A stretch of DNA of 63,943 nt, counting the filler, from Kipferlia bialata (lineage: Eukaryota): the NCBI GenBank assembly GCA_003568945.1. It is 3 parts of 3 records of this genome, joined end to end, with 100 filler letters (N's around TTAATTAATTAA, not from the genome) between each part and the next. Parts side by side here need not be neighbours in the genome. Positions count along the whole stretch, not along the records: positions 25,934 to 51,642 come from BDIP01000208.1; 2 more parts are not named here. One strand, given 5' to 3'. Both the position numbers and the translations under genes were made by a program. Each line of letters begins with the position of its first letter. Position 1 is the stretch's first letter. Below are positions 5,863 through 40,300 of the stretch, piece by piece. The notes under the pieces are model-generated. The model saw only the letters and a list, made by a program, of their open reading frames with translations, searched no databases and was not told the origin of the DNA.

Positions 5863-5893
<31 letters not shown>

Positions 5894-6323: not shown

Positions 6324-6375
<52 letters not shown>

Positions 6376-7544
6376 CATATGCAGTGGGAGGTGTCACGTG
6401 TCTAAGGAGACGCCTGGGGTAAGATATGTACATTGATGTTAAACTCCATGAATGTATGGATTGCTATACATGTATATTACCCTACCTCAGGTCCTCACAG
6501 TCATACACAAAGGTCTCGGTGATGCCCTCGCCTGGGGTTGGTATCTATCAATATATATATATATATATGTATATACACACATATATACATATATACACTC
6601 ATATATATAAATACATAAACTAATAAGAATACTAATATATTTAGGGTCTCAGTGATGCCCTCTGGGGTTGGCATGGTTAAAAACTATATCTATGACTGTC
6701 AATACAATCTGAATGGTGCTACATTAGAATACATTCGAGCATGTCCGTACATCTACCTATATATATATACAAATATGTAATATATATCAATATATAGTGT
6801 ATTTCATATATTACACTATATGTATATCAATATATAATACTACCTTCGAGCATGTCCCTCTGGAAGTCCTCTGGGATACAACATCAATCTATGACCCCAT
6901 AATAAATGTATTACCTTCGAGCATGTCCCTCTGGAAGTCCTCTGGGGTACCCACCAGGGGCAGGCCCAGCTGTCTCTTGACACGGTCCAGACGCTTACTA
7001 AAGGATTAGTACGGTCCAGACGCTTGCCTAGATATATTTATATATACTACATTAATATTTAGGCCCAGCTGTCTCTTGACACAGTCCACACGCTTACTAG
7101 AGGGTTAATAATAGTAGTATTATTATATACATACATACATCTGCTCACCTGATGTGTGACACATACTGACTGTGCACATCAACAAGGGCAGGGGGGCCTG
7201 AGATTAGATAAGTATAATATGTGTATATAAATGAAGTATGTATATGCCTATACACATACATATTCATTAATATATGAATACATAGAATTATATATATGCT
7301 GACTGTGCACCTCGACAAGGGCAGGGGGGCCTGATTGTAAGAGAAACATAGTATATATACATCAAGAGTGTATGTATATGTCTATACATTTATATGCTGA
7401 CTGTGCACCTCAACAAGGGGGGCCTGGTATGAGATACGACCGTATTACACAATGGAGCGTATGCGCACAAATAGTCAGATACGTGGACTAGTGATACACG
7501 AAATCTCCAGTATATGTGTCACTCTATCTCTCTCACTCATATAC

Positions 7545-7586
<42 letters not shown>

Positions 7587-8955
7587 TATCTCCCATACCT
7601 AGGTGTGGTGGATGTGGGAAGAAGTCGGCCAGCTCCTGGGGGTCAGAGATCCAATACATATGTACAATATGTATGCAGTGATAGAGAGAGAGAGAGAGAG
7701 AGAGAGATAGTGATTCATGGGGGTCAGAGGCACAAGAGTATACAGCAATGTACACGATCTACGTCTATATGTATAATACACACTACATCTAGTATATACA
7801 CTCCTATACCTCCGGCACAGCCAATTGTTTCCTGAGTGATGGGCACTTGTCAGCCACACCCAGCTGGACATCGGTGGTAAATAGACTAGGGGTTAGGGTA
7901 TACTCTATTCCAATGTTAAACAAATAGGGAAGGGGAAAGCTTGAGTTCGCAATTCTATCTCGTATCTGGTACCTTGTATTAAACAATTATTCTTTCACAA
8001 AAAGAAATCTTGTCCCTATACTATACACATCCATACCCTGGCAGGTTGACCTGTGCCACCAGACTGGGCAACCGTCTCTTGACAGTGAAGACCTACTTGT
8101 TAGAACTTTAACACATATATATTAGCTAATACAGATATGCAAGCATATATAAACACTGAGACACACATTCAACAGCCGTCTCTTGACGGTGAAGACCTAT
8201 CAGTTAGTTACATATATATATATAGGGAGAACAATCCTATCTATATACATGGTTCAATATAAATGTATAAGTCATCGGAGTAGGTCCTCATTTGACGGTA
8301 AAGACCTGATAGTGAGTATGTATATACAAAGAAACAGAGAGAAGGATTGAGAGATAGACAAGTAGCACAAAGAGACAGAACAATGGAGAGAGAGCAATCG
8401 CTACCGTCTCTTGACAGTGAAGACCTATTTGCCAGTATCATAACACAGATATATATACACATTTATAAGGGGACCTATCAGTTAGCATAGTAACACAGAT
8501 TACTGTATAGATATACAAGGGGAGAGATACTTTTGTGAGTCTCTTGACGGTGAAGACATATTATTCAGTATGTATAGGATAACCAAAATAGTGACATACC
8601 AAATAGTATATATGACGGGCTATGAAATATCAAGACACATTGAAACAGGAGAGGGCTTGTGTGTGTATGTGTCTTGTATGTGTGTGTGAGAGAGAGTGTG
8701 TGAGATAGGGAGATGTTGGTTGTGGGAGAGAGACAGATGAGTGAGAGGGAGAGAGAGATGGGACAACTGACAAGGTAGCCTGGCATACCTTCTGGTTCTG
8801 GCTCTGGACCTCGTCCTGGGGGTGAGAGGACATAGGGGTAGATAGGTATACATGTGTATGTATATATGTACAGAGAGAGAGACACTAGGGTTATTAAGAC
8901 GAAGGTTCTGGCTCTGGACCTCGTCCTGGGGGTGAGAGGAATATGAATACATTTG

Positions 8956-9005
<50 letters not shown>

Positions 9006-9389
9006 ACACATATATGTATTTACCTGGACCTCGTCCTGGGGGTGAGAGGATATAGGGGTAGATAGGTATCCATATATATATGCGGAGAGGGATAGAGAGA
9101 GAGAGAGACACTAGGGGTATGAAGAAGCTTCTGGCTCTGGACCTCGTCCTGGGGGTGAGAAGAATATATAGAAATGAGAGAGAGAGAGAATATAAACAAA
9201 AGCCTTTGGGTAGGGGAGAGAGAGACTAATAGATAAAGGCTGGGGGTGAGACTGGACAGGAAAGGTTGTATTCCCGAACCCCGAGTAATCACCACAAGCT
9301 CATATATAGGATATGTACATATACTATATACCTTGAGACTGGCCCTTATGGCCCAAAGGGTCCTGAACTCCCCGGCCTCATAGTAGTTG

Positions 9390-9394
<5 letters not shown>
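88..9394 (-). CDS. TBC1D19: TBC1D19-like Rab-GAP (TBC domain) protein, multi-exon, 3' end runs off the window
   Basis: ATG at 9394 (MDNYYEAGEFRTLWAIRASLK|gt). Hand-spliced exons give AAKRGIPSSLRPRVWGLIL (TBC GIPxxLRxxVW motif, ~3955-4035), VDVLVRMDVRLSCLDE, QHHFVFETTLDGIMCALV, YPESGIVPFKG (~1082-1115), IALYGAPLCFLYEQ (~711-755) and RVFSVLKELYVRYFSRLHRLSSE (~367-440). These follow the remembered TBC1D19 motifs (YFVFED, YPPSGVIPFHG, APLCFLY, MYVRFFFRLH) in order. Confidence 0.85.
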
Positions 9395-11104: not shown

Positions 11105-13843
11105 GTCTCTCTCTCTCTCTCATCCCTGGCTAACCCCCCAGAGTGCCGTCATTGCCCAGCTGATGCTGACCAGTACACAGCAGACAAAGAGAAGGTATAC
11201 ATATATATACATTGAATATGATTAATATGTACAAAATCATGTACATATATATATATAGTGTGTATTACTATATATGTGTGTGTGTGTGTATTATATATAG
11301 TATATATAGTATTTGATGCTGACCAGTACACAGCAGACAAAGAGAAGGTATGGGTATATAGTATATATATGCCTGTATCTAATGACATAAGGACGCGGCA
11401 GTCAAGGAGGAGGTATATACATATATCTATGACAGAGTATATTTTACTATTCAAATACTTTTACATCCCCGTCCTCAGAGACTATATATATATATATATA
11501 TATATGTAGATGAGAACGCATATATATATATATATCATTAATTCTAATATCTTCTGATACCAGCCACATTCCAGTCATCTGCCAGTTGGCCATAATACAT
11601 ACATACATACACCTATATATGTATTATATACTGTATGCTGTAGTAGTATGTATACATACAAATACTGTTCTCATACCAGTCACATCCCCGTCCTCTGCCA
11701 GTTGGCCAGAGAGGCCAAGGGGGACCAGGGGTCACTACCTATGGAGAGGTATTATGTACTATGTATACATATTGTGTACTATAATGTATATCATAGTTGT
11801 TAAATGTATGGACATCCACCGTATTCAGCCCACCTTGACAGCGCAAGGTGTATATGCATGTATATATATATGTATATATATATATATATATATTTAAGAG
11901 TATCTGCACATATGTGTGTATATGTAGATACTTTGTATTCTGATAACCACCCAACACCCTAGGCAACCCCTGTCCCACCTTGACAGGGCCAGGTGCATCG
12001 GGTGGATGTTTGGGGACATGTCCACACAGTCAGGGTATGGCTATATGTATATTATATATCTATCTGCATGTATAAATATGTATGTATGTATTGAGGGAGA
12101 GAGTAGTAGTAGTAGTAGGTATCGACTCTATGTTTGGGGACATGTCGACACAGTCAGGGTATGGAGCTATGTATGTATTCTGTATATATATGTATATAGT
12201 GAGGGCATCACATAGAACACCGCATAATTGTGTAGGAGTGTATCAGTATCAGTAGATACATTTTTCTCTTTACATATGTCTGTATATAGATTATATATAG
12301 TAGTATTGAGACGGCAGTTATTTATATGTATTTTGTGCAATATTACTAATATCCAGGTGTGGCTTCCTGCCCCGTGTTGCCAAGGCAATTAGTGTATATG
12401 TACATGTATATACATATGCCAATGTAGATCCGATGTATCATACCATTTGTATACTCAGAGTCTAGGTGTGGCTTCCTGCCTCGTGTTGCCAAGGCACTGC
12501 TACAGCTGGTATCAGAGACACAGGTATGGATGGATATATAACATGAAAGAGAGAGAGAGAGAGAGATCCTAGGTGTCAGAGACACAGGTGTGGAGACGTG
12601 GATTGATATACAGAGAGATCCACATACTGCTTGTGTGTCATTATATGCAATCTGTCCAGCTCCCATCTGTCAGGACATATACATAAATATATATACATAT
12701 GTACATATATACATACATATATATATTTGACACTGATGTCAGGACAGCAATGCCCGAGACTTCATCCACATATATATGGAATATTAATGAATAGTACATT
12801 TATACATAAATAGTGTATGAATAGAACTGAATACATACATGTGAGCTGTATACTCATTGTCAGGACAGCAATGCCCGAGACTTCATCCACATATCAGCCA
12901 TGGAGCACACAACGACAGGTATGGTTATGTAGTGTATGAGCTGAGCATTTCCCCCTATCCCTATAACATTACTGTATATGTAAATTTCATTCTATACCAA
13001 CAGTTTGTGTAAGTGCTGAACCCAGGCGTTAGGGATGTGCTGAGCATTGCCCCCTCCCCCTCCATCAGCACAGTGGCCATGGATGAGTTACAACATAGGT
13101 GGATATGGTATATATGGTATACATATGTATGCTAGTATAGGTAGTGTATGTATACCTAGTATACTACGTCCCCATCCATCAGCACAGTGGGCATGGATGA
13201 ACTGCAGCACAGGTATATAGTGTATATATACGTATATGAATATTAGGAGATGTGATGCAGCATAGGTACCATGCCTATTATATACATGTATTAGTGTTGT
13301 GTGTATAGTAATTATACTAATATTATACTAATTATACTGTACATACATACCCATCAGCACAGTGGGCATGGAGGAACTGCAGCACAGGTATGTAAGATAG
13401 TATAGGTAGTATGTATATAGATTGATAGACACATGCATGTGTAAATGCATATACCCCTCTATCTATCTATCAGCACAGTGGTCAGTGATGAGTTACAGCA
13501 CAGGTAATGTATTCTGTGAGCAAACAGAGAGTATATTTTTCATTTCATATTTATGTCTATACTCTGTCTAAGTCTGTCCGTACTGAGAGTGAGGGCATTA
13601 CATATTATAGTAATGCAATAACTATATCGAAGTACACTCAAGTATATAGTGAATAGAAATGAATATATATGTGTGTGTTCTCTTATCTGAAGGTCTGTCC
13701 GCACTGAGAGTGTGGTATATACACACATATATATATATATATGTAGCACTACTAACCTATAGGTCTGTCCGCACTGAGAGTGAGGCCATTGTGACACTCA
13801 AGTTCCTGGCACAGACACTGGCAGTCACCTGCCACGCTGCTAG
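9865..13843 (+). CDS. Multi-exon coding region resembling a degenerate N-terminal half of a kinesin motor domain (no intact P-loop); may continue in frame into the nitroreductase
   Basis: Exons: MESQIQ/VKEIPVYDLASPD/VLSVLHLCP...LVSGDDNTLVHTNGE/GTVTRVPHSFFEVV.../...ARCIGWMFGDMSTQS/GCGFLPRVAKALLQLVSETQ/DSNARDFIHISAMEHTTT/GVRDVLS...MDELQHR/SVRTESEAIVTLKFLAQTLAVTCHAAR. Phases are consistent from 10374 onward; the exon-2 donor is uncertain. The coding status is well supported, while the kinesin resemblance is by eye. Confidence 0.6.
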
Positions 13844-14860: not shown

Positions 14861-16639
14861 CTCTTACCCTAGGTCACCCCTGCCATGACTGTGGCAGTGC
14901 TCACATCTCGCTTCTCATGCCGCAAGTTCAAGGTACTGTATTGATTGTAGATACATACACCCATAAATACGAAGGCCTAGTATGGGTGCGACCATTACAT
15001 GTGTCTATAATCTCACACATTCCCTGACCCCAGCCCACCCCTCCCCCCCTGGCCCTTCTCAAGGACGTGTGTGCCCTGGCCAGCTGTGCCCCGTCAGGTA
15101 TATATCATAGTATATACATAGTTATATATATACTATGTGAATAGTTTGGGTGTATATGTATATGTGTATATATATATACTACGCTGTGTGTACAATCAAT
15201 GTATATATGGGGGTATATACTAGTGTGTGCCCTGTTCCCATACCCTCCCACCCCTAGGCGCTGCCTGTGACTCCAACCTTTCGCATTGGTATATATATTG
15301 TATCATTATAGTAACCCATCTCACCCTAGGCGCTGCCTGTGACTCCAACCTCTACACCATTGTGTCCTCCCCTGAAGCAGCTGCCAGGATATCTGAGTGG
15401 TCATTCCCACCTCCCCCGCCCATGGATGCACAGAAGGTGTGTATCGGTATATATGCATCGTCTATTTATATACGTCGTCTGTATACATCTGACTCCAGGC
15501 TGCTTGGAAGGCTGCCTGGTTCACTGGCCGCACCCCTGGGTCCACCATCAACGGAGCCCCAGCATGCATCATCATATCCACACCCCCGGTGTGCCAGATA
15601 GGCATGTGCTTTTTGATATGTATGCCTACCCATTCCCTGTGTTCAAACCCTCACCCGCCAGACCCTCTGGTCACAGGCCCTTGGCCCCTACAGGATGCCT
15701 CCCTGGCCAGTGCACACCTGCAGGTATAGGTGGTATATATATTTCACTTAGAATGTATACCCATCTATGTGGGTATATGTATATGAATATATATATACAG
15801 GATCCCTCCCTGGCTAGTGGCCATCTGCAGGTATAGATAGTATTGTGCGGTGTAATATACACATATTGTCATCCCACCCTCAGATTGCTGCCTCTGGTCT
15901 GGGTCTGGCCACCTGTGAGATGTCGAGACACGCCGCATTCAACAAGGTACTCATGAGTGTGAATATATATATTATATCTCTAGAGTAATAGCATGTATAT
16001 GTAGAGGTATGTCGAGACACGCAGCATTCAACAAGGTGGGTGTATTGATGAATAAGGTGTATGGTATATAATTTGAGTCTCTATATGTATAGTCTCTCTG
16101 ACTCTAGGAAATGGCTCTGCGTGCCATGTATGGTATCCCAGAGGACCACACGGTCAGATGCCTCATATCCATCGGGTACTCGGCTGAGAGGTATGCATGT
16201 TCTGTACAGTACGTGGACAATAGTATATACGTTTAGTGTATGTGCAGATTGACCCCATCCACAGAGGCATCCAACAGTCAATGCTAGTATTATATATTTA
16301 TGGACCTTCACTATATATGTACAAATCGAGAGTGTACACATCTATGATGTATATAGCTTCTTATACCAGGCCCATCCAGAGAGACACACAACTGTCAAGG
16401 CCAATAAATTATTCGTACATGTACTACGGTATATGTATATATATTGATATATGTATATATATTGATATATGTATATGTATTGATATATGTATATATATTG
16501 ATACATGTATATATATTGATATATGTGTATATGTAATATGTGTAAATGTATATCATCTTATGTCAGGCCCATCCACCGAGGAGTGCAGCGCCACCCGCCC
16601 CACCTCAACATAGTGACAGCAGTGCCAGAGCAGGAGTAG
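14602..16639 (+). CDS. Nitroreductase-family (FMN-dependent) domain, multi-exon
   Basis: Spliced exons: VAVLTSRFSCRKFK (RxSxRxF motif, 14873-14932), PPPLALLKDVCALASCAPS/G (APS motif), APACIII, QDASLASAHLQ/IAASGLGLATCEM (A-x-x-LGLGxC motif), ALRAMYGIPEDHTVRCLISIGY (GIPExxx...IGY), then stop TAG at 16637-16639. Confidence 0.85.
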
Positions 16640-22034: not shown

Positions 22035-25000
22035 CTACAGTGACCCATGCACCAGCCCCGAGTGCAGCTCCTGGCAGGCCCCCACCACAGCAGTGAGGGC
22101 ATGGGTCTGGCCTCTGTCCACAGACTGGGTGGCACCCTCAGCTGTATAGGCCATGAGCTGGCACCCCTCCCCCTCCACACTCACCCACACCTCCCCCTGT
22201 GCCTGGGCCACTCGCCACTCGCCATCTCCCTCTCCCTTTGTCTTTCGGGTGTCACCCGTATCCTCCACATCCTGTCCCACCCATGTCCCCCCCTGCTTAG
22301 TCCCCACACTAATGTCCTGGGCTACTGGCGCAGGTGACCCTAGACCCATGGGGGCAGTCAGGGGCACAGACCTGGGGTGGGGTAGGGGTAGGCTATCAGG
22401 GTATAGTAGTGGGAGAGACAATTGGTGATATATATATATAAATATATACACACTACACCGACCTAGCGTATGTAGTCACTGTCTCCTGCCGCCTTCTCCT
22501 GCCGTGTCCCTCTCTGGCAGAGGCCAGTACCGCACTACCGATCCCTGATGCCGCCCTACCCTTGTACACGCTACCCCACACAGCCCCCTTGAGGGGCCCT
22601 AGCCTGTCCTTCCTCTGGGCACTCCCACTCCTATTCCTGTGGGAGTGGCTGGCGAATGTGATGGTCTCGACCAGCTCACAGGACACGGGGGCAGGGGGGA
22701 CGCAGAAGAAGGGGCATACGTTGGGGTAGCTCTCCCGCAGGGTGTCTCTCAAGGAGTTAAGGGCCATACGTAGTCTCTCACTCTCGAGTAGCAGAAGGAT
22801 CTCGACCAGGCCGTCCTCATCAACGGCCAGAGAGGGAGGGGGGGAGGGAGGGGGGGTCAGGGCATCTGCTGACTCCTCGGTCTCTGGGAGAGCGATATTG
22901 TCCACATCTTCCGGGCCGTCTCCTACCGTCCCCTTATCTTCCCCATCTTCCTGCCCTTGTGATGCTATGGCACCCTTGCCATCAATAGTGTCATCACCCT
23001 TGTCACCAGTATCTCTCTCCCCCTCCCCCCCCCTCCCCTTGCCCTTGATGGGTTGGCACAGCAGCAGAAGGGCGGCCTGGGTGTCGAAGTCCGTGTCAGG
23101 CGATGGGTTGACGCATATCAGCATACACTCCTCGTGTCTCAGCACCCGTCTCAGCTGCCCATCCCCAGGGGGGGTCACACTGCCCCCCTCCCCCTCACCA
23201 CCAGAGGTTTGGACAGACCCTCCCATAGGCGCCCTTGGCCCACCAACCTGCCCGTCCCTCCCACCGACCTCTGCGTACACAGGTCTCCAGCACACCAGGG
23301 CCCGGTTGCCTCTGTTGGTAAGGGTATAATGCATGTGAAAGATGTAACTATATATATCCTCGTGTGTCACCAGCATTGTTCACACAATATCCGCGTCACA
23401 CCTTGTGTTGCTGCCCACCAACAGACAGAGCTGAGCCACGTGGGGGGGCATGTTGGACGACACCACACGGCCCCGATACACAACAGCGGCTTGCACCTGG
23501 GGTGAGGGATGGTGATGGGCCATTATACTCTATCACGTCACACCAATCCCGTCACAATTAGTGGGACGAAGAGTCTTGATTCAAAACTGACCTTGAGTCT
23601 AGAGCTGAGGCCTGACACATGACGCAGCAGGGCATCGGCCTGGAGGGTGAGAGAGAGAGAGTGTGTCAGATAGAGGGGGAGATGTCTGCCATATGCATAC
23701 AATTATACATATTCATACATATATATTGTTATATCACATATACCACGTCTACCCACCTGCAGGAATGGGTATGATGATGCCCCTGTTCTGAGGTAGGGGG
23801 TGGACCGGATGGCCAGAGCCCTCCCGCTGTTGTCGAGTAGGTACTTATCCACGAGGGGGACAACCTCGCCTGCAGGGTGAGAGGTGAGTCATCTGGAAAC
23901 ATACATATGTATGTATGATGACCGACTGAGTAACACAACTATGCCTATGGCACCACCCACCCGATATGCTCTTGTAGCACTTGTGGGCCTCCTCCAGACC
24001 CTCATCACTCAGACCCAGCCTGGCACGGAGATGCAGGTCGGAGCCTGGGGTGAGCAAGGGGGGGGGGAGTAAGAGAGAGGATACGGGTCAATCGCCAGGG
24101 GGATGTGGCACTCTACATATGTTCCACCCTGCATATCCCATGCTACTCCAACCCCAGCATGATGCCCCACCTACCAGGAACCTGACGGCCATCACGACTA
24201 GACCGGTCAGGGCTTGTGCCTCCTGTCTAGACACAGTGCCACCCCCCTGGGCAGAGGTGTGCCTCACAAACAGATACCCCAGCCTGCCGTCCTGAGGGTA
24301 AGGGAAGCAGGGCATTAGTGGGTGGAAGTAGCATATGAGCAACTGCATCCTGTGCCGTACACTCTGCTACGCTGTAAGCATCAACACCATTAGCCCCCAT
24401 TCCCTCTGTACCCCCACCACATCGTGTGGAACAGACCCACACTGACTATATATCCACATACCTCTGCCCCAAACACAGACACCGGCCTCCCCCTGAGGGT
24501 GGCCCTGACCAGCACCACTTGCTCCTGGGGGTGGGGCATGGAAGACATAGAAGGTAGAGACACAGGGTATGTACGTTTTTACACTCATTATGTAAGCATA
24601 CAGAAACAAACATGAATACCTTGTCGAAAGGGGTGCAATCCTCAAGGCCCGACACATCTCTGAGGATGAGGATACAGAAAGTCTAACAAATATACACCCA
24701 AGTCAATGTCGGTTCAGGATCCAATGAGAACTAAATAGTTAGGTATGGGTGATACATCAACAAGTGGGGCACCTGGACACCCTGAGCAGAGCACTCAGCC
24801 TCTTGAGGATGAGGGAGGGGTGGTCGAGGGGGTCTGCCCCTGAGGGAGGGCGGTGTCTGGCCATGTCCACAGCCACAGGGTCAGACATGTCGCTGGGTGA
24901 GACAAGCGGGGGGGGGGGGGGGGGGGGGGGGGAGGGGGAGGGATACCTGGGGGTGAGATACAGGGGACATACATATACATATACATATGACATCGCCCGG

Positions 25001-25039
25001 AAGGGTGGAGGGGGGCATGCGGTATCTGGAGGTGAGAGC

Positions 25040-25071
<32 letters not shown>

Positions 25072-25633
25072 AAGAGGAAGGAACCACTGCATCTGCCCTA
25101 CCTCAGCAGCTGGTGCGTCACACTCAACAGGAAGTACCCGTCCTGGGGTCAGAGAAGGGGAGAGGAATTGAGATACAACCAGAAGGATATATATTCATCA
25201 TTGGGGCGGTACTGAGTGGGACTGGACACAGTAACACATGTATAATTATGTACATATGTATAGCACACACCTGGTGCAGTGGAGGTGCCATGTATGGGAG
25301 GGATGTGGGGTGTGGTGTGCTCTCCCCTGCACCAAAGAAGGTGAGCAGTCTGAGGCCACCCTCTCTGATAGAGGGAGCATCACTGAGGAGCTGGGGTGAG
25401 AAAATGACATACTTTTGCATATCTGAAGAGAGAGTGTGTGTGGGTGTGTGTGAAGCCACTCTCTCTGATAGAAGGGGTATCACTAAGGAACAACAGTTAG
25501 CGACCAGAGTATATGGATATGAAACTGCATCGAAACACAGAGGGAGAGAGAGTACCTGCCCCATTGACACCATCAGGCGCCAGTATCAATTATTAATAAT
25601 ATCAGAGACAAGGGTATGTGAATACATATATGA

Positions 25634-25668
<35 letters not shown>

Positions 25669-25767
25669 CATATATATATATATACATTCATACTACCTGC
25701 CCCATTGACACCATGAGGTATCTCAGTGAGTGAAGCATCACATTCTCAGTCACACTCCGGTCAAGGC
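22035..25767 (-). CDS. Hypothetical multi-exon protein, 5' end lost in the gap
   Basis: GC-rich exons with canonical GT/AG, for example GLDRSVTENVMLHSLRYLMVSMGQ, LLSDAPSIREGGLRLLTFF, DGRLGYLFVRHTS, VQAAVVYRGRVVSSNMPPHVAQL. There is a long exon at ~22475-23310 and a last exon ending LVHGSL* at 22035. Confidence 0.7.
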
Positions 25768-25833: not shown

Positions 25834-25933
25834 NNNNNNNNNNNNNNNNNNNNNNNNNNNNNNNNNNNNNNNNNNNNTTAATTAATTAANNNNNNNNNNN
25901 NNNNNNNNNNNNNNNNNNNNNNNNNNNNNNNNN
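25834..25933. other. Assembly gap containing artificial TTAATTAATTAA linker (25878-25889)
   Basis: 44 N + TTAATTAATTAA + 44 N. The linker has stops in all six frames, which is a standard contig-joining spacer. Confidence 0.95.
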
Positions 25934-28058
25934 GCTTGCAAAGGTCTGAAGGCCACTTCTTCCCAGATGGTGGAAGGTATAGAACCATTGCGCACTTCTC
26001 TGGAACTGTACAAATTGGTGGTGGTGCCAGATCTCGGTAGCGGTGGTTGCAGAGGTATTCTTGTCTGACAGACTCCAGGTCGGGGCCCGACAGTACCCGA
26101 TGCCTAGACTGGATGCGCTGTGTAGCACGTCCCTGGTGCAAACACTTCGAAAGTGCTGCAGTGGCCTAAGGTTAGCACTGTACTGATCTTCGCAGACACA
26201 TATTCGCTCAGAGACAGAGTCAGAGTTCTATAAACATCGTAGATAATAGAATTGTCCAATACACAAAGGAGACAGGTGCTCATTGAGACAACCCCTCCCT
26301 ACCTGAACATAATCGGCCATGGTTTGCACGTTCTCCATTCCTGACTTTGTCTTTCCATACCTGTGGTATTAGCAGAGGCTTTCAATATTTTCATATATAT
26401 ATATACATTTCGGAAGGCAAGTCTAAATTGTCACTGAGGGTATGGAAAACCACATGTGTTATGCATACCTCTGGACACAATCGGGAATGTTGAATTCCTC
26501 TAGACGTGGATAGAGCTCGGCTGAGGTAGGACATTAAGATACAGTAGCAGAGAAGTCTAAAAGAGACACTGACGTACGTTCTGCCAATAGGGCCTCTAGT
26601 ATACCCATGATGACTCCCGGCGTCTCTCTGCTGTCCATGTGTAGGTTCATAGCAGCCAAGAGGGTACGCAGATTGACAGGCTCCATGAGAAACTCTACAA
26701 CAGTTGGCACCAAGTGGTCCTCATCGTCCACTGACTCTAAGGTAAGAGAATAGTATACATGAGGCTGGATAGCACGTATGATTGTATAGTCACCACCAGG
26801 AAGGTAAATGACATTGGACTACCCAAGTGCCACTCATACAGCTACGTACCATACATCATCCTGCGCACCAATGTGCCAGTACCGGTCACGATCCCATCAT
26901 CCTTTGTGTCAGATACTCTACTGACTGATACGCAATCCAGTAATAACCCTCTTGCCTGTATGTGTCTTGACATCGCCTCCAGTGCCCACACGTGACACCC
27001 ACTGGAGACAAGAGGGGGACGTGTAGATGCTGATACATGAGACAGCATGAGGCATGTATGATTATCAATAGCCCACGGGTTAGAGTAGCGCGTGTAGTAA
27101 ACAGACAGAGTACCACAAAAATAGATTTCTACCTGACTCGGCGATGTGTGCCAGAGTAAGAAAAACTGGGTTGACTACCAGCCGTTCAGAGGGGTGTGCA
27201 TCCAATGCAGTCCGAGAGGCAGGAATTACACCACTGTCTACAAACAACTGGCGGATGTCTTCACCCGCTCCTGAAGTATAAGATAGCAGAAGCGCTTCAC
27301 CAATATGATTGGTTGAAGCCAGTTACCTTGGCCAATTTTCCCCAGGAGCAACATCACCACCTCGCAGATAGAGCCAGAGCATATGTAGGTGGACAGAGCT
27401 GTCAAGGCAAGAGTTAGGACACTAAGAGAGATGCCCTTTTCAATGAGGTCTGGTATGAGTGGGATATAGGGACTACTACTTTACAGCGCAGGAAGATACA
27501 TCTCTCCCACCTATTCCTGAGAGGACTATATGCAAGCGCCGAAGCATTTGGCAAAGAGTGCTGTTGTCTCCCATGTGGGCCTTGATATACCCAAGTAAGG
27601 TCTGAATCACACTCTCCGGGAATGTCCAGGGTAGGTCAGACTTCACTGGTGTGAGTGGGGGAGGTGGTGACAGACACAGAAATAACTATGTCCGATATAC
27701 TGAAGAGATACTCACCCCTCTCACTGTGGGCTTTGACAGAAAGGCACAGTTTAAACGCATGATTCATGTAAGCAAAGGATGTGGCACCCTTGCGATTCAA
27801 CACAGTCAACACCAGGTCACGGACAGCAGGAGTACACAGAGCGGAGAGACAGGACTCTGGGGGGAGACATAGTGGAAGGTGACAACAATTCAGTGAAAAT
27901 TCAGCCTCACATGTCTCAGCTAGACTACTAAGAATAGTCATGGCATGGTTCTCAACGGCTTGGCTTGGGTATGTCTGTGCTGTCGCAAGGACAACAGGAA
28001 TGAGACCACTCTCCACTAGAGCCATGTGGGTATAATCATCTGGAGTCAGAGAGTATAC
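25934..28058 (-). CDS. Hypothetical alpha-helical (ARM/HEAT-like) protein, truncated at both ends
   Basis: Exons MALVESGLIPVVLATAQTYPSQAVENHAMTILSSLAE... (ORF 27636..28025) and DHLVPTVVEFLMEPVNLRTLLAAMNLHMDSRETPGVIMGILEALLAE resemble armadillo-type helices. The reading frame runs into the gap. Confidence 0.55.
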
Positions 28059-28312
28059 CTGAAGTACAAAGAGAACATAGTAGCCAAGAATACAGTATCA
28101 GTAAGTTAGAGGGTATGGTCATCTGGAGTCAGAGTCGACGTGGGAAGAGGCAACACTTGTGGTATTTGGGGGGTACTTGTAGCACAAGAAGAATGACACT
28201 GACCAACTAGATTTACCCTTTTACAAAGGGGGAGAGGAAGGATGGGAAGGAGACGGGGGGGGGGGGGGGGGGGGGGGGGAAATATGCATATATATATGAA
28301 GACTGGACTCAC

Positions 28313-31300
28313 TTGACTTCGATCTCGCCGCTGCCTGTCAGGGACACAGTCTCTATGAAGACACTGCCACCTGAGCCACCACCGGCACAGGTGTAGCCAA
28401 GGGCTAGTGGGTGAGAGAAAAAGGAGGTAGGGGTTGTTTGGAATACATGAATATGGATCCTACTACACAATACTTCATTAGACTCTTCAAATAATAATAC
28501 TTCATTCATATGCAGGTACACGTATATGTAGGTAGATGGCACTCACTTCCGTCGGCACAGGACCCGTAGTCACCGTTGGCAGTGACCTGGGGGTGGGGGG
28601 AGAGAAGAAGAGATATCTTGAATGCGGTACATACTGTACCTGCCCATCCAGCTGCACTGTGCTGCCAGTCTGACCACATACTTACAATATAGGATACTGA
28701 TACCTATATACATATATATGTGTGTATATTTATAAAACTACATTAGTTACCTGTCCATCCAGCTGCACAGTGCTGGCTGCCAGTCTGACTGACCCTCCCC
28801 CTAGGCCATACTCCCCAGTGCCAAAACCACCTCCGCCCACACCTACGGGTAAGAGAGAGTGGTATACAGAGGGGAATAGGAGGTATATGATTACATGTTG
28901 ATATGAACTGTCGTGTGTACCTGTGAATGGGAATGATGCGAGTGTGGCCAGTGGCAGGTGTATATACACTATATTATATATTCACTAGTACATAGTATGC
29001 TATATACCATGCCTGCGAATGGGAATGACGCCAGTATAACCAGGGGTAGGTGTATATACAGTTCACTGCCGTGTATATGTATGTAGTACAGCAATAATAC
29101 CTGTGAATGGGAATGATGCGAGTGTGGCCAGGGGCTGGTATGTGGACTCGGTACAGGAGAGACCGCCCTCGGTCAGCAGACCACCACCAGCACCTAGTGT
29201 GAGATAACATGATATTGCAACACAAAATACGAGATATAGCACAAATGTACAGTCCATACACATACTAGAGGGCGTTAAGTACCTGAGAACTGGTATATGG
29301 GCCCCCCTCCCTGTCCCGATGTGTCTATCAGGCCATTGGCACTGATGGTGATGTCACCGGAGGCAACCTCAATGGTGCCAGCAGATAGTGTTCTGAGGTG
29401 AGTCTACTGTATACTGTAGTTACAATTTGTCTAACATGATACTGACAATATAGTCCAAGAGGCAATATCAATGGCACCGGTAGAGAGGGTGCTGGAATGA
29501 GTCCATGTCACAGACAATACTGGCACAACAATGGTCTCAAAGAGATACACTGAGGGATACTCGTAATTCAATACTAAGATATACTGTACACAACAATGAA
29601 TCTTAGCACAGGCTGAACCGTACCCTGTGAGGGAGAATGAGGACACAGCCACGAATGACATGATGGCCAAGTCAGTCACACTGTACTTGGGGGCATAGGT
29701 GTCATCAAACATGGAGTCTGATGCTGCACCCTTAACAACATGTGACACTCCTACACCCTTAGTACCAGCTGTAGAGGATGATGTCTCAGTCTCTGCCACA
29801 GTCTTTGTCTCCAGATATGCTGGGCACGTGATGGAGCCATTGACGTTGATGTAGCTGGGTCAGACTGAATCTGTGCAACAATAGAAATATATGAATAGTG
29901 ATGTAGCTGGGTCAGACTGTATCAAGACATAAAAGAACTAGCGCAGGAGAAGAGTCAAATATAAATGTATATATATACATATATATATACTAATATACCA
30001 CCTTGCGTTGAATGTCATGTCACAGTCTGATGTCTGACTATATAGGAAACTTACCGATACTATATATATACACACACACACACACATATATATATATAAC
30101 GATCTGATACCCACCTTGCGTTGAATGTCATGTCACAGTCCGATGTGACTGACCCCCCACTCTCTATTGTGATGGAGGAGGAGGAGGCGGTGAGGGTGGC
30201 ACTGGTTAGATAGCTAGTAAGTGTCTGAAGGTGAGAGAGGTATATGTGTATCATACATATATATATCTATATGATATGTATATGTATGGAGGAGGAGGAG
30301 GCAGTGAGGGTGGCACTGGTGAGGTAGGAGGTAATGGTCTGGAAGTCAGAAGAGAGGATGACACATACTAATATATATTTATACTATTACTATTATATAA
30401 TCAGTATCAGTGAGGGTGGCACTGGTGAGGTAGGAGGTCAGGGTCTGAGGATCAGAGAGAGAGACATATATAGAAAGAGAAGGGAGAGGCACTGGTTCGG
30501 CTATGACGTGAGAGATAATATATATATATATATACATCAGGGTGTGTAAACGAGTGCCCCCCACCTCATCATTTGGCGACTGAGCATACAAGTCCCCACT
30601 GATGGTGACACCGGCAGAGGACCCAAAGGAGATGGAGACATCCGTGCAGTCGTCTGAGTATGAGAGAGGTGGGAAACACATGTACTCAGGATATATATAG
30701 ACATATTACAAATATTCTCCTTCATACCTGGCTGCATTGAGTTGACCAGGTACACCGATGCCCCAGCTGTGATGTATAAGGGCACAGTCAGTATGTACCC
30801 AGTACTACATGATGTGGACAGGGCATCCAGCACGATGTCATCACTCAGAGTCACTATGGAGGAGGTGTCCGTGGAGGAGGCAGTCTCCACGTCCTGGGGG
30901 GAGAGGGAGAGAGAGTATATGTATGTATACATATATACTATAGGTATACATACAATAGTATAAAGAGGAGGCAGTCTCAATGTCCTAAGGTGAGGGGGTG
31001 GAGAGGGGGTGTGCACATACAGTTACCCAATCATATACACAATCAGACTAGGCCTAGCATACCTTGATGTTGATGGTCTTGATGGTGTCTGCCTCATACC
31101 CAGAGTCGGGGGTCGGGATGGAGACATAGCCTGGGGTGAGGGTGTATATATATAGTTGCAGTGACATATACACAATTACTGACAATCACTCCCTTACTGC
31201 AGTTGGTGGGTATGGACATACAGCAGGACTATCAAGTATATAGATATTCATACCTGGGCTTCCCAGGTAGTCACTGCCCTGGGAGCTAGACCCACTCGAG

Positions 31301-34300
31301 ACAGAGCACCTGCAGTGAGAATACGCAACTTACAACATAATGTCGATATTCATTAGTTGTGAATAATACAGAACCCTCTACTCGTTTGATCACAAAAGCA
31401 AATAATATAGTTTTGTTAGTTCTAAACCACTCTGTACCTGTTCTTGAGTTCTGTGTAGTCGTCTGCGTCAATGTCAGAGCAGGTGGAACCAGACTGGGGT
31501 GAGGGATAATGAGATGCATATACATAGAGAACAGTATGTAGATATATAGTTGGTCAGTCATATATGATACAAACCTGAGTAACAGTAATGAGTCCGCCTG
31601 ACCCTGTGTAGTCACAGGCTGTGCCTATGCACTGACCACCTGGGGGTCAAAGGGATAGATGGTATATATATGTATATGTGGGGAAGGTGGGATAGATATA
31701 TGAGGAGAAGAGTGTATATATACACACACTCACCCTCTGCCTCTATGTAGACACTGCTCCCCGTCCACATGTTGTTGAGACAGGGTATGTCCAGGGACAC
31801 TGACCCCCCTGATCCTGTGCCCTGGCCATCCACACCACAGACAGAACCATTGGCTAGGAGAGTAGCCTAGAGTTAGAAGGTATAGTATATACATATATAT
31901 ATATATATATGTATATATATATGTACTGGCCATCCACTCCACAGACAGACCCATTGGCCAATAGTGTAGCCTAGAGAGTTAGTAGATACAAAGAACACAC
32001 ACAAGTTGTATACACATATCCCATACACCACAGGTGGAGCCATTTGCTAGGAGGGTGGTCTTGTGTAGTAGGTCGATATATACAGTGAATATAAATAGTG
32101 AATATAGACACAACAGGTGGAGTCATAGGAAAGATGATATACATACACAAATATATATACCCAACATGCATAGTACCTCCGTTATGTCCATAATGCTAGA
32201 CTCCGTCTCAGCCGATGCCCCCGCTGTGAGGTATATGACACCCCCTGCCATACAGGTCAGAGAGGAGTCAGAGGTGGAGGGCATCCAGCCTGGGCAGCCT
32301 AGGGGTGAGTATATATACATATATACACACACACACATATACAATATATAGGTCAGACAGGAGTCAGAGGTGGAGGGCATCCAGCCTGGGCAGCCTAGGG
32401 GTGAGTATTAGTATATCTATATATTTACATATATATATATATATATAATCAAACTTTAACCAATTACCTGGGTACAGGTCGATGCTGCCAGCCGATGCAC
32501 TAGTGGGCAGGGATAGCGACAGGGCAGAGGGGCCAGGCATGGAGGAGGGGTCACAGCTGGAGGAGTGGCCTGGGGTAAATTGGAGCTATTCATACATATA
32601 TAGAGGGAGATATACAGGTAGATATAAATAGAATAGTGGAGGAGTGTCCTGGGAATAAGACAGTGGTACTAATGTAAACATAAATGTAGACAAAGGCAGG
32701 TATACAAGGGAGTGGCGAGTTACACCGGATGGAATGTCCTGGGATAGAGTATAAGAGAACATACTATATACATACACATATTCTCCTTACCTCCGAGAGC
32801 TATACTGCTACACCCTCCGTGTCCGTTGCACGTGGTGTCTGTGGTCTCAGGGGTGCACAGGGTGGAGACAAGGCCTGGGGTGGGAAAGTATCCGTAGGAT
32901 CTCTGTCTATCCCTAGATATATACTAATAAGCTTAGTCCACAAAAGTGATTATATGATTTCAGGGGTCGAGACCTGGCCTGGTGTTATCGCACACACTGC
33001 AGTCATTATATCTCCTCTCTCATCTCTTAACCATATGTAAATGAGTAGATAGAAAACCATTGTGTACCTGATGCATCGACGAGTGCCTTCTCCATGTACA
33101 TCTGGGGAGCCTCCACATAGACCAGTGGGGCAGAGAGACTGGCCTGGCGGTGAGAAGGAAAGGTAATACCTCAAATTGTAATGTTTCATACACAAATATG
33201 AATATATGTGTAAGAAATATGTGTAAAACATACACACCTGTCTCAGGTTGATATCCCCGCTTGACACCAGGTACAGTGCAGTTCCAGCCTCTAACACAGA
33301 GTTGAAGAGAGAGGCAGAGGCTGTCTCAATGGAGGCAGTGTCTGGGGGTTAGACATGACAATTCGAAAGATAGTAGTCTGTGCGAGAATGAGTAAAGATA
33401 TACTAGAACACATTCATCCACTGTAGATACCTCCCACCACGAGAGATGCAATGTCGATGTCCTCATTACGACGTAGACATATATGGAGAAAATAATATAG
33501 AAGTCTGTAAGAGATTGAGGATGTGGAAATAGATGCTAGGGTATAATCACCGCACCTCCCACCACGAGTGATGCAATGTCGATGTCCTCATTGTCGTCAG
33601 AGACAGTCAGGTTGTCTGCATCAATCTCTGAGACAGAGACTGAGGCAGCGTTGAGGTACACATCGCCACCTGACGTGAGAACAAGGAATATACACAGTAA
33701 AGACAGTATCAAGAAGAATATATACACCCAATATGAATTCACATAACACATGTGCCATAGTACCTGCATAGAGTGACGTGACTGCCACAGTGTGTGCCCC
33801 TATGACGACATCTGTCTCTGAGTATATGGATGATACCCCGACACTGCCGGTGGAGGCATCCGAGGAGAGGGTCAGGCTGGACACAGATATCTGGGGGGTT
33901 AGTCAGTGCATACTCCGGAGACACGTCAATTACAATATACTCTTTACACTAGAGGGTGGACACAGTAATAGACGGGGATACGAAATAGGAAGAGACAGAA
34001 ACATGAAGAGCTGCTGAAGTATTGGCACTATACCTCAGTGAGATCGATGCTGGTAGGGCTGCTGAGAGTGACACTGGCCCCTGGGGCACTGATAGACAGC
34101 ACATCGAGCACATTACTCGATATGGCCACATCCCCAGTGCCACTCACAGATATGCTACTTACGCTGAGTAGGGTGGATACCGCGAGAGAGAGCGAGGCAG
34201 AGAGAGAAAGGGCCAGGCTCCTGAGGGTGTCACACACTACATCTAGGGCTGTGGCTGTGATGCTGGGGATGGATACTAGGGTACCGGCTGAGATTGTGAC

Positions 34301-37300
34301 TGAATTGTCTGTGACAAGGGGTGACGAGACACGGACAGAGAGGGTGGAGGAAAGGGAGAGGGGGCATGGGCTGTCGACCGTGTTATCTATCACTATGCTC
34401 TGACCGGTGATGCTGTCGCCAGAGTCACCGGAGGCACATAGGGAACGCTCAACCTAGAGGGTGAGTATCCAGAATAATAACTATAACTAAATACTATACA
34501 CATAATGTATACCCATTGGTGACTAGGTGATTGTAGCGCACTATACCTTGTAGAGCTGTACTGCCCCACTGCCTGATATGACCAGGTCTCCACTGTATAT
34601 GGACACAAGACCGCCAGATGTGACACTTGATCCAGTCAGAGTCACACCACCAGACCCAGTGGCACCAATCGAGTTGACCTGGATGGTAAGAGTACAAATG
34701 GTATGTAGTGAATGCAAAAGAGAAGTATCTAATAAGTGTCAGTGTGTATGAATTGTACTAACCTCAACCCCGCACAGAGTGTCGGCCGTGTCCTTGCATA
34801 CACAGGTGACACTGGCAGCAGAGCACTCGTCGACATTGAGTGAGTTAAATGCTGTGGCTGACAGGGCCCCTGTCACACTTGTCACAGACTTTGCAGATAG
34901 GGTGGAGCTGTTGATGGTGACCCCGGATGCTGCACTGACCGCGTTGAGAGTGACGGTGGGCTTAGTGGCAGGGGTGTCTGCATACCCAATAGTGAGGGAC
35001 GCCCCACCTGTCAGGGTGCCACCCACACCCACTGAGACTGGTGTGGATAGAGACACAGCCCCAGAGACAGAGATATCCCCTCCAAGGGTCACAGTATCAG
35101 CAGTGACTGTGAGAGACCCGTCTAGAACAGAGAGGGATCCGTCGATGTCCACACCCTCTGCCACTATAATGGCATCACCAGTAGAGGCACTGACATCACC
35201 CGAGACTGAGAGGGACGATGTGCACGTGGCCTGGCTACCCACTGTGAGGTGGCTGCCAGTGTACATGTCACCTAGAGACACCCCATTGCATGTAGACAGG
35301 GTCACGGCATCGGTGGAGGAGAGAGTGCCGCCAGAGAGGAAGTCCGCAGTGAGGGTGACAGCCCCTGCACAGGATGTGGTGTAGGGTGAGGCTGGGAGGG
35401 AGAGTGACCCAACTGCAGTCACAGTCATTGCACCCATGGATGATGCACCTGACACACTAGCAGAGCCAGTGCTGTCTATAGTGACAGGGCAGGAGGGTGT
35501 GGTCAGGGAGTCAATGGAGAGAGAGACATCAGAAGGAGCAGTCTCACTCTCAGCTGTGATGGCTAGTGCCGTGCATATACCCTCTGCCTGCACTGCACCC
35601 AGCTCCATATCGGCATGGGAGTGGATAGTGATACCCACACCCACACTGGTACTGACATTATCGACAGAGACTGACTCGATGTCCACACCTAGGCCTTCGA
35701 TGGTCATGTCCCCACCTGCAGACACAGCTCCAGTGGTGATGTCACAGTAGGTGGTATTTTCCACGCATGACAGGGATAGGTCTCCGTCTGTGGACACATC
35801 CCCCAGTGACATGGCAGAGAGAGAGGTCAGTGAGACATCACCAGATGCCACAACTCCAACTGCAGTGGATATGGATGCACAGGAGAGAGTGACGTCACCA
35901 GTGGATACCACAGTGTCAGCAGAGAAGACACATGCCGGGGAGGCACTCAGGGAGACACCCCCTGCCTTGAGGGAGGATAGCTCCACACTGTCTGTGACAG
36001 AGAGAGTGACACTGCCTGTCACACTCACTCTATCAGTGGAAAAGAGATCAGATGCAGCTGACACCACCATGTCTCCACCAACATCCAGAGAGGGAAGTGT
36101 CACCACACCCCCTGCAGATAGCACAACACCCCCACTGACTGTACCCTGCAGTACATCGATATCAGACGTGGCAGTGAAGGTGGAGGTGGCAGTCTCGTCA
36201 CTCCCAGTCAGAGTGGTGAGACTCACATTATCTGCTGTCACAGAGTTGGTGACACCGCCCATTGACATACTGTTGACACTCATGTTGCCGCTAACTGCTA
36301 CAAGAGTGTTTCCAGCGACAGACAGGGTGTCAACCAGAGATAGAGAGGCACCAGCTATGTCGACACCTCCACCTATAGTGCTGATGGAACCACCAGAGAT
36401 AGCTGCGGTACCAGACACAGTGAGGGCACTGGTACCCTGTGTCTCCAAGGTGTTGAAGACTACACTATCCACTGCAGAGAGGGTGAGGGTGGTGTATGCT
36501 GGGATGGTGACCTTGGCTGGCTCTAGGGATATACCTCCAGTGGCAGTAAGAGAGACAGATGTCTCTGTCCCAGAGTCAGTATCTGTGAATGACAGACTAT
36601 CACTCATAGTGATGTCAGTACCGGATACAGTTAGTGCCTGGGACACAGATACACTGTCCAGAGAGACATCTCCTCCAGTGACAGAGATATCAGCTGTATC
36701 GGATGTCACACTTGACACATCCACACCACACAGGGCACTGGTGGAGGGGTGTACACAGGTGAGGGTGACGTCGGTAGATGCAGATACGGTATCGAGTGAG
36801 ATGTCCTCAGTCACACTGTAGAGCGAGACACTCCCACCAGTGCTCACCACACTATCTCCAGTCACCCCAGCACCATACACTAGCACATCCCCTGATGCCT
36901 CTATGACAGGTAGAGATATACTGGCTGTGCTGAAGTGGGCGGGGTCGCCATCCAGGGCAGGGGGGTTGACCTCCAGGCTGAGGAGGGAGAGAGAGTATAC
37001 ACTGAGGGGGGCAGTGGTGAGTGCACCAACAGTGAAGACAGCTGGTACGTCACAGGACATGCTGCCCGTCACGCCAAATGTAACCGTGTTGCATGTCACA
37101 TCCACACTCTGTGTGGCTGGGTCTCCACCAGATATGGTGACATCAGCACCGTCTAGGGAGAGAGAGTCCGATGTGACCAGGAGGGACTGCCCTGTGAGGG
37201 TACCGGAGACATCCACAGCACCCGTGGCACTGAGAGTGATATCGGTAGTTGCCTTGATGATACTGGCATCGATAGAGTCAGCAGTCAGAGAGACTGATCC

Positions 37301-40300
37301 ACCGAAGGAAGTGTAGGCACCAGACACAGCCCCTAGGGCACTCACATCAATGTTACCAAAGATGTATGCACCATACTCACAGTCAAGACTCCTCAGGGAG
37401 ACAGATACATCACCACCGTTGGTGGTAACGGTGTCAACGGTCAGGTCTGCGAAGCCAGAGAGGGATATGGACCACGCAGATATGGAGTGCACTGACATCG
37501 CGTAGGTATCAGCGGAGTTGGTACCAACCACACCAGAAATGGCACCCACTAACAAGGAGCCGTTCTCGACGGATAGCGCCGACAATGCCAGAGTAAGGGC
37601 GGACGCGTAGACTGATTCATGGAAGGAGTACTCCCCACTGACACCGAGGAGGGAGATGTCAGATGCTGTGGATACCAGACCGTAGACAACAGCTGTCCCA
37701 GTTACAGTGAGTGTAGTGACACCATTAGTGTACACGTCACCTGTGATAGAGATATCCTCGCATGTCACGTCAGTCTGATGGGAGGTGTACAGGTCCCCTG
37801 TCACAGAGACGGATAGAGTGTTAAGGGTGCCGTCTAGAATGTCGTCTGCAAGGACCAGGGTATATGCACGGATGTCGCCAGATACGATCACACTGTCAGT
37901 GACATACATGGTCACGGCAGCGCTCTCACCGCGTAGATTCTCGCACTCAAACTGGGCAGCAGTGACCGCTATAGTGTGTCCGTCTGCGGTGTCTGATGCG
38001 TAGCTAGTGACATCTCCGTTGACGAGGATGGAGCCAGTGGCAGAGAGGGACATGTCTCCATCCGCACTGACTACGTCCCCACCAATAGTAACTCCATCAG
38101 CTGTGAGGGTGATGTCAGTGTCAGAGGTCAAGGCATCAGTTACTAAGGAGGTGGCTGTACCACCTGACTGAGCCAGGGTGATGGAGAGTACACCCCCACT
38201 GGTGAGAGGGCTCTCAAGAGTCACACTGGTACAGGTACCAGAGAGAGAGAGAGCACCCCCTGCAGCCAGGGCAGGTGCCACAGAGACAGTGTCACTCACA
38301 GTCAGACTGAGGTCACCAGCGCTGGACATACTGTTCAGTCTGCTGCCTGGGAGTTAGGGATTACATAGTAACAAAACATACTCAATTTAGAAGTGAAGAA
38401 GTAAAGGAATTCATGGTCGTGTACCTTCCACCACCAGTATGTCACAGGTGACTGCCAGAGCCTGTACACTGAGGCTGTCCACCTTGGACCAGTTCCATAT
38501 GAGGTTGGTGCCAGTCAGGGAGAGGGAGTCAGTGGCAATGACACCCTGGCGTGAGGGGGGGGGGGAGGACCCAGATGAAGCAGAGCAGAGTGGATTATAC
38601 AACAAATGGGTCATTATATATATGTGTATACGAATATAAATACCTTGATGTCGATGTTGTACTCTGGGTCGGCTGGGTCATAGTCCACAGCCAGTCCATC
38701 TACAGTCACAGAGGCTGCAGAGACATGGCTAGTGGGTGATGTCACAAGGTCAGAGCTTGTCACAACAAGACCATTGGTCACATCGGCAGTGTGGAGGGAG
38801 ACGGAGGTGGCAGACAGTGTGACAGCGTCTGAAACGCTCATGCTTGTCACAGAGACAGTGGTGGTAACGAGAGGGTCACTCATGTCTGTCGAGACAGAGA
38901 GAGTGGCGCAGGAGACATCCTCTATGCTGCAGGATAGGCACCCAGTGACAGAGAGACCGTGTGACTCTGCGTCCACAGTGCCTAGTGCCACTGCCCCTGT
39001 TGCTGTGACAGTCATGTCACCAGAGAGGGAGAGAGAGGAGACGGAGAGGCTGGCTGTGGATACAGTGTGGGCACTGAGGCCTGAGCAGTCGAGGGAGGAG
39101 AGAGAGAGGGTACCACTGTTGGAGAGGGTGCATACGGAGGCAGAGACAGCACCCGTGGAGACACCGTCACCAACCACCTGAGGAGTGAGGTATGACTCGA
39201 ATAATGTAGTGTTACAGTATGATGACAGAGCCCATACCTCCAAGGTCAGTGTACCCCCAGCAGTCACGTCAGCAGAGAGTGAGAGGTCGCTCTCGAGGTA
39301 CACAGTCAAGTCCCCAGTAACTGTAATAGATCCAGTGGATGTCAGGGTGGATGTGTACAGAGTCATGTCTGATGAGACTGACACAGAGGAGAGGAGAGAG
39401 GTCGAGACACCGGCTGCCTCGGCTGCATTGATGTACAGGTCGGTGGCTAGGAGACCGTCGCCCTGAAGATGAGAATAGAATATACATACATATACACATG
39501 GATCTCTTCTAGAGTGCACCGTACCTCCGTGTAGGTCGACATTGTGAGTGAGTGGGTGGGTGACAGAGTGATGGTACCCACAGCACTGATACGGGTGGCC
39601 TCGAGGTCATAGCTGAAAAGGTGAGCAGTCAGTAAAAGGGGAATGAACGTATTGGGTAGATATACATTGCATTATACATGAACTATGTTTCATACCCTGC
39701 TAATACTGTAGAAGTGCTTGTCACCCTTGTCACAGAGACAGTGGAGGCACTACCCGATGAGGACACATCCACATCAATGCCAGTCACACTGGTGAGGGAA
39801 ACAGCGCCACTGGGGGTTAGACACTCACAGTGGAAAACTATATACATAAACTAGTATGCTACCTCCCGGCCACTGTGACCCCACACCCTGTGCACGTGAC
39901 AATCTCTCTCTCTATATACACTAATACATCATATATATATATATATAAGAATACCACACCTCCCGGCCACTGTGACCCCACACCCTGTGCACGTGACAAT
40001 CTCTCTCTCTCTATATACACTAATACATATATATATATATCAATACAGTACCTTCCAGCCACTGTGACCCCACACCCTGTGCACGTGACAATCTCTCTCT
40101 CTCTCTATACACTAACACATCATATATATATATATATATATAAATACATTACCTCCCCGCCACTGTGACCCCACACCCTGTGCACGTGAGTGTGTCGGCA
40201 GAGACTGCACCCCCAGTCACAGACAGGGAGGAGGAGGAGTCCACATACGTGACCTGAGGGTGAGGCTAATTATTCACATATATACACACATAACCTATTG

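Follow-up and report, generated by a model that had tools for sequence, protein, structure and literature searches.

Introns of Kipferlia bialata contain partial copies of adjacent exon ends that were once protein-coding

More than half of the introns modelled in a 63,943-nt stretch of the Kipferlia bialata genome (the window) contain echoes, copies of the adjacent exon end together with its splice site. The echoes are real, unspliced and pervasive in the window, and they differ from the working exons mainly at silent sites: over 147 echoes, dN/dS between echo and exon was 0.21 (95% CI 0.17–0.27, bootstrap over families). Today they are untranslated; in the past they coded for protein, and the selection that they record belongs to that past, not to the present. 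We consider it probable that echoes are remnants of alleles that once worked, left behind by unequal repair between strongly diverged homologues whose introns can no longer be aligned.

The focal case is a working exon of 110 nt (30115–30224, minus strand, as are all features of this locus) in gene P0001/KIPB_001458, recognized by its match to P0001 and by a contig from a presumed RNA run (X2), which contains it with no other letters and with GT..AG joints on both sides. The flanking introns, 29855–30114 and 30225–30564, are RNA-confirmed and also GT..AG. A far 5' echo in the upstream intron (30409–30447) consists of an acceptor cag (30445–30447) and 36 nt (30409–30444) encoding the same 12 residues as the exon start. 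The first-pass annotation of this sequence had reported seven changed codons, including AGC to TCC, and no changed amino acid; alignment confirmed this, the seven codons differing at 8 nt, all synonymously. A near 5' echo (30286–30341) has its acceptor at 30339–30341 and 53 nt of exon start at 30286–30338, with six silent codon changes in common with the far echo plus the single L to I replacement noted earlier; alignment places its start at 30286. The 3' echo (29998–30033) joins the last 32 nt of the exon (30002–30033) to an adjoining donor and, as had been claimed, bears one synonymous change. By segment analysis and the RNA contig, the upstream intron also holds a donor-to-acceptor segment that resembles a complete intron and contains the used donor (30448–30564), and a 61-nt donor-less stub that ends at the used acceptor (30225–30285). 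A second donor-less stub, unlike the first, lies between the two 5' echoes (30342–30408, segment analysis). In the downstream intron, a stub of 81 nt (30034–30114) runs from the used donor to the 3' echo, and alignment found a fourth, smaller copy at 29899–29923, comprising 17 intron nt and 8 exon nt of the next acceptor. Identical stretches between the exon and its echoes measure 17–30 nt, and at most 17 nt for the near echo. When mutation was simulated in the echo alone, the eight changes in 12 codons of the far echo were all silent in 0 of 100,000 runs; when the live exon also drifted at silent sites, the probability was 0.00027. A second clear example is the 5' echo at 31926–31976 (minus) of exon 31734–31866, with five silent codon changes and no amino-acid change over 15 codons; an RNA piece covers this exon (31731–31865) with no other letters.

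Echoes were counted in one window from one sample, on seven gene models, one of them the annotated P0001 and six predicted here by script and by hand, giving 140 exons, 133 introns and 266 exon sides. P0001 mapped as GT..AG exons to a model of 64 exons and 3514 aa (28016–51596, minus), which is Ser/Thr-rich and contains 57 of the 147 echoes; its longest exon is 100% identical to P0001, hypothetical protein KIPB_001458 of K. bialata. Pfam PF00225 matched four of five kinesin exons submitted, in the modelled frames. Each exon was aligned to its two adjoining introns with a score cut-off of 26, which was reached at 96 of 266 exon sides compared to 0.5% of pairings between exons and non-adjacent introns. 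Two of 149 matches were removed as C/T-only low complexity, leaving 147 echoes on 95 exon sides in 74 of the 133 introns, on both strands and in all seven gene models (341–60480). The window consists of three parts separated by N runs (25834–25933 and 51643–51742), and the echoes therefore lie on at least three separate contigs.

Their anatomy is strictly polar. Seventy-five echoes copy a 5' exon end and lie upstream, 69 copy a 3' end and lie downstream, and none is reversed (n = 147); the three others cover an entire exon of 27–30 nt, while 144 hold one end only. Within the 74 introns, 3' echoes always precede 5' echoes. Echoes have a median length of 29 nt (range 14–65), a median of 42% of the exon, and their alignments to exons contain three gaps in 4487 nt; the echo unit has a median length of 106 (5–95%, 64–159). 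Exons longer than 130 nt are seldom flanked by echoes (4 of 39 sides vs 91 of 227, P = 2e-4). Counts for the lack of a partner splice site in echoes (1/77 and 2/70) are weak, coming without a null and from short search spans.

The silent excess is a property of the true reading frame. Echo and exon differed at pS 0.225 (dS ~0.27) and pN 0.055, with 84, 79 and 258 differences at the three codon positions, and silent versus changing codons numbered 216/143 in the true frame but 36/326 and 38/321 in the shifted frames. When each family was represented by a single echo, dN/dS was 0.22; it was 0.23 for the annotated gene, 0.20 for the remaining six, and 0.16–0.42 across the seven genes singly. The focal example, for which cherry-picking had been raised as a concern, was thus not cherry-picked. 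In simulations through the same pipeline, a dead echo mutating alone gave 1.05, and a dead echo beside a live exon at equal rates gave 0.52–0.54, with a lowest value of 0.37 in 75 runs. The earlier proposal that these copies were filtered as protein-coding therefore holds even against the stricter null of a drifting live exon, for which dN/dS of about 0.5 is expected. Copies made in cis start identical, and by reasoning and simulation neither decay nor conversion would take them below about 0.5, which argues that both copies diverged while coding, as alleles or homeologues. Simple in-cis tandem duplication with neutral decay, which predicts at least about 0.5, was rejected.

Comparisons among the echoes fit the same history. 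Echo against echo, dN/dS was 0.24 (CI 0.15–0.40, 37 families); dead copies therefore differ mutually as working alleles would. Nine synonymous codon swaps need at least two changes each. Echoes with an intact splice core gave 0.16 and the 29 without one gave 0.44, a value partly inflated by forced extension to the exon edge, which adds some mismatches; pS was alike in the two classes (~0.22–0.23), suggesting that silent divergence was present from birth and that decay was added later. Amino-acid differences numbered 19 in the nearest echoes and 38 in the farthest, and they were barely more conservative than random (54% vs 49% with BLOSUM62 of at least 0), as expected from later decay. Silent changes concentrate at the splice-site end (47 of 235 vs 29 of 238 codons, P = 0.024), and codon preference did not differ between echo and exon (73 vs 92, P = 0.16).

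Beyond the splice site the resemblance is mostly lost. Identity was 0.90 over the 15 exon bases at the splice site and 0.34–0.38 at 17–36 nt into the intron, compared to ~0.29 for random intron pairs. The splice cores themselves were kept, with GT in 60 of 67 donors and AG in 58 of 71 acceptors, and echo splice sites score like real ones although their letters differ. Intron segments beside echo and exon exceeded the 95th percentile of random pairs in 8 of 68 and 14 of 67 comparisons; there were nine strong cases with near-identical intron sides, and a few arrays are alike along the whole unit. Intron similarity did not track divergence of the exon part (rho 0.13 and −0.11), and echoes identical to their exon (10 donor-side, 15 acceptor-side) mostly had unrelated intron sides. 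Stubs, with medians of 68 and 77 nt compared to 105 for donor-to-acceptor segments, resemble introns short of one splice signal.

Two readings would deny that echoes are inert genomic DNA. The one to which we give almost no credence is an assembly artefact from merged haplotypes, although the published K. bialata genome is, from part of its report (PMC5874029), likely diploid and short-read assembled, and although our DNA evidence is itself short-read and comes from a run (X1) whose read-built contigs may be the source of the window sequence. Exon and echo nevertheless lie in tandem on one DNA path. An unbranched contig, 30105–30331 (depth 381), carries the exon, stub and near echo, and is not a merge of alleles, since the longest shared stretch is only 17 bases; contigs 30303–30437 (depth 435) and 30409–31879 (depth 453) carry the far echo, and all three have no other letters. 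Depth across the focal pieces (381–462) was like that of unique DNA (456 on a 7.5-kb unique contig) and so indicates single copies. The stretch 29953–30104 is repeat-masked in both read sets, and DNA continuity there is given by one 129-nt contig (depth 427) that holds the 3' echo variant. Hardly more credible is the idea that alternative splicing, non-canonical splicing or template switching lets the echoes be translated, a candidate of the first-pass annotation. Echo splice sites do look functional, and inclusion would leave an open frame in 10 of 118 cases, yet insertions are multiples of three in only 36 of 118, as by chance. The single X2 contig at the focal locus (joints 29854–30115, 30224–30565 and 30653–30728; no other letters) has the exon variant, with depth 0 on the 5' echoes. 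It skips every echo checked, the focal ones and the eight spanned between 29624 and 39461, over which the modelled exons sum to the RNA length of 6718 nt. Contigs drop rare forms, so that these comparisons concern the prevailing isoforms and DNA forms.

Other readings accept dead copies but derive the silent excess differently. Plain tandem copies might have arisen if silent sites in exons changed 4–5-fold faster than echoes, and low-complexity introns faster still. Simulation with such a rate in the exon does yield dN/dS of 0.19–0.22, and a second allele, none of which was seen, becomes unnecessary. But the cause of such a rate difference is not known, echoes would have to change least of all within the compartment that changes fastest, and swaps of the AGC/TCC type imply long coding histories, so that we hold this reading to be improbable. 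We rate only slightly higher, and still as unlikely, the idea that echoes are under present indirect selection, gene conversion or collapse with the exon purging harmful echo changes. The identical stretches of 17–30 nt at the focal exon, the low dN/dS among echoes too, and the smaller number of silent differences in the inner part all agree with it; exchange that frequent, however, should erase silent differences, yet pS is 0.22, and the focal contigs, which would drop rare forms, are all at single-copy depth with no deletion joint over an echo among those listed. In-cis swapping of exon ends, as the first-pass annotation had put it, would erase silent differences or leave dN/dS of at least 0.5, and does not by itself account for 0.21. 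A stronger competitor, though still a doubtful one, shares the allele pool of the allelic reading but differs in the birth of the copies: tandem duplications of ~100 nt over one splice site arose in cis, and the working exon end and its adjacent intron were later overwritten again and again from diverged alleles, the echo staying behind. The narrow unit length, the minority of units with near-identical intron sides, the youth of the nearest echo and the match of simulated dN/dS under faster exon change all speak for it. Against it, exon-identical echoes mostly have unrelated intron sides, and where the intron beyond the splice site is non-homologous, overwriting could hardly reach that site and still leave the echo in place. 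Several routes were tried and rejected. A single event making both echoes of an exon, by insertion of a whole exon into the old one, found no co-occurrence (odds ratio 1.16, P = 0.84), and an apparent complementarity (P = 0.0004) fell to P = 0.17 under a length-matched null. Whole-exon duplication followed by deletion predicts reversed echoes, of which there were 0 of 147; microsatellite enrichment at junctions, expected if they were seeded there, was not significant (P = 0.08). Introners or transposons with target-site duplication do not fit stubs that, in the window, are mostly unrelated to their neighbours, or duplications of 14–65 nt anchored at splice sites.

Of the three candidates originally proposed, exchange between long-diverged haplotypes thus fits best, while non-canonical splicing or template switching gains no support from the RNA contig and in-cis swapping falls as a sole cause. 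Under the allelic reading, a break near one exon would allow the broken end to enter the homologue at the corresponding exon and to copy the homologue's entire intron plus ~30 nt of the next exon. That end would not anneal to the resident exon; microhomology-type end joining would instead attach it to the part of the resident intron that had escaped resection, giving intron–echo–stub–exon or, for 3' ends, the mirror form. Further rounds of unequal homologous exchange could use an existing echo as their landing pad, so that arrays would come to combine several alleles. Products would survive selection only if they carried a single spare splice site, passed over by the spliceosome as it takes the first donor and the last acceptor, and the echo would then decay neutrally; products with both sites would be spliced in and lost. 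A single junction from inside one allele's exon to inside the other's intron would yield exactly the observed polarity, and one-ended invasion with joining would account for the complete intron on one flank, for the long stub on the opposite flank and for the preference for short exons. Some of the traits expected of such a repair product are present in the echoes, one boundary following homology, the other illegitimate, and polarity fixed.

Some observations weigh against an allelic origin. Most neighbouring introns resemble each other no more than random pairs do, and echoes with similar intron sides, the best in-cis candidates, show the same dN/dS as the rest (0.22 vs 0.20). The allelic reading would need intron turnover far faster than that of silent sites (dS ~0.27). 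The DNA run contained no second allele over 28000–39800 (no other letters), and we infer the donor; searches found no paralogue, and metagenome scans no close relative (one locus, L001, 26% identity). Repair genes speak for the allelic reading. According to sections of PMC8516963, Ku70/80-type end joining and Rad51A are missing from fornicates, which possess two Dmc1 paralogues, and metamonads differ in alternative end joining, some having the full pathway and some only part of it. In yeast assays, Dmc1 was more mismatch-tolerant than Rad51 (PMC7923544, in part). A bolder version, which we offer as speculation, is that Kipferlia routinely swaps introns and exon ends between hyper-diverged chromosomes, driven by Dmc1, with exons as the sole pairing sites and echoes as refreshed landing pads and a recombinable archive of coding alleles.

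Echoes come closest to repeats that span a splice site, to intron gain by duplication and to duplicated exons, but lack a defining feature of each. In FGG, the exon 8–intron 8 junction is reportedly duplicated. Human F7 intron 7 has a 37-bp VNTR that spans the exon–intron boundary and carries silent 5' pseudo-sites (PMC1557585, in part). As in these boundary repeats, an exon end and splice site are repeated within the intron, the most upstream donor is used, and the extra copies are silent; F7 is thus a precedent for the skipping of spare donors. F7 and FGG are, however, single loci with near-identical units, whereas Kipferlia echoes occupy more than half of introns, on donor and acceptor sides, and their units differ mainly at silent sites, with intron parts mostly unrelated (0.90 vs 0.34–0.38). 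Exon-derived sequence also comes to lie inside introns when introns are gained through tandem duplication within exons (PMC2891723, in part), but here no new intron position arises; the existing intron grows, the copy bears the old splice site, and the RNA contig shows both echo and stub spliced out as part of a single intron whose position is unchanged. Tandem whole-exon duplicates with mutually exclusive splicing, such as SCN-alpha exons 5a/5b, are likewise adjacent copies diverged under purifying selection (dN/dS 0.21 for echoes). Echoes, unlike these, each comprise half an exon and a single splice site, keep to a strict polarity and do not occur in the RNA contig. Where homologous invasion is one-sided and end joining completes the repair, the resulting junction follows homology on one flank and is illegitimate on the opposite one, and sequence is locally duplicated. 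Such junctions have been described after induced breaks and in disease rearrangements, but are not known to make up a genome-wide intron architecture built from alleles; the SDSA, MMEJ and FoSTeS/MMBIR repair routes are described in PMC4888836 (in part). The feature is unmentioned in the examined sections of the K. bialata genome paper (PMC5874029), where 'duplicat' occurs 0 times, and of PMC6679479; literature searches, covering mostly open-access main texts, found no description. Echoes thus appear to be a so far undescribed variant of splice-junction duplication, here likely of allelic origin.

If echoes are allele relics, one genome is a record of past sex, in which no fewer than three to four diverged haplotypes took part in repeated exchange at each site; we would estimate silent diversity at ~0.2. 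To our knowledge, sex has not been observed in the group of Kipferlia, a free-living protist (fornicate), and sex or recombination in a free-living fornicate would become directly testable. Echoes also suggest how introns could lengthen and be replaced in a lineage that has no Ku-type end joining, and they provide natural tests, by the thousand, of how a spliceosome reduced to 87 of 174 proteins (PMC6679479, in part) chooses its splice sites (first donor, last acceptor). They can mislead gene prediction in the K. bialata genome.

Several further details of the echoes were seen. Their density varies strongly by gene, from 2 of 24 exon sides in a GC-rich gene (22035–25767, minus) to 22 of 42 (341–9394). 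Echo-plus-stub units are re-amplified as near-identical tandem arrays at 58579–58981 (plus) and 39839–40189 (minus), with periods of ~89 and ~95 nt. At 15801–15830 (plus), a complete copy of the 30-nt exon 15694–15723 has both AG and GT and could be included in mRNA or be an alternative. At 60189–60355 (plus), an echo has a canonical acceptor while that of the presumed working exon seems weakened and shifted, and the echo possibly preserves an older exon boundary. A 21-nt in-frame segment with AG and GT at 11394–11412 (plus) resembles the end of exon 11142–11194 and is either a diverged echo or a micro-exon. Across the 133 introns, acceptors carry a probable branch A at −8/−7, directly beside AG, and donors are GT followed by A or G.

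The gene models raised points of their own. The RNA contig extends 1366 nt beyond 29624 compared to 445 in the P0001 model, and at 26300–28060 (minus) a gene finder extends the open frame through more exons; this could reflect an error in the annotated last exon of P0001 or a long 3' UTR. Upstream of 39461 the contig has 2926 nt compared to 3382 in the model, and the first ten P0001 exons (47559–51596, minus) are unlike the Ser/Thr-rich remainder; P0001 may be a fused prediction. Elsewhere the window holds a kinesin motor gene (PF00225; 17059–20358, minus) and a gene encoding five helicase-associated domains (PF03457; 60825–62048, plus). Two related coding-like stretches, at 51749–51900 and 53837–54364 (minus), one of them seemingly truncated, are separated by a 2-kb low-GC region without echoes. 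A short palindromic linker stands at the N-run joins 25834–25933 and 51643–51742.
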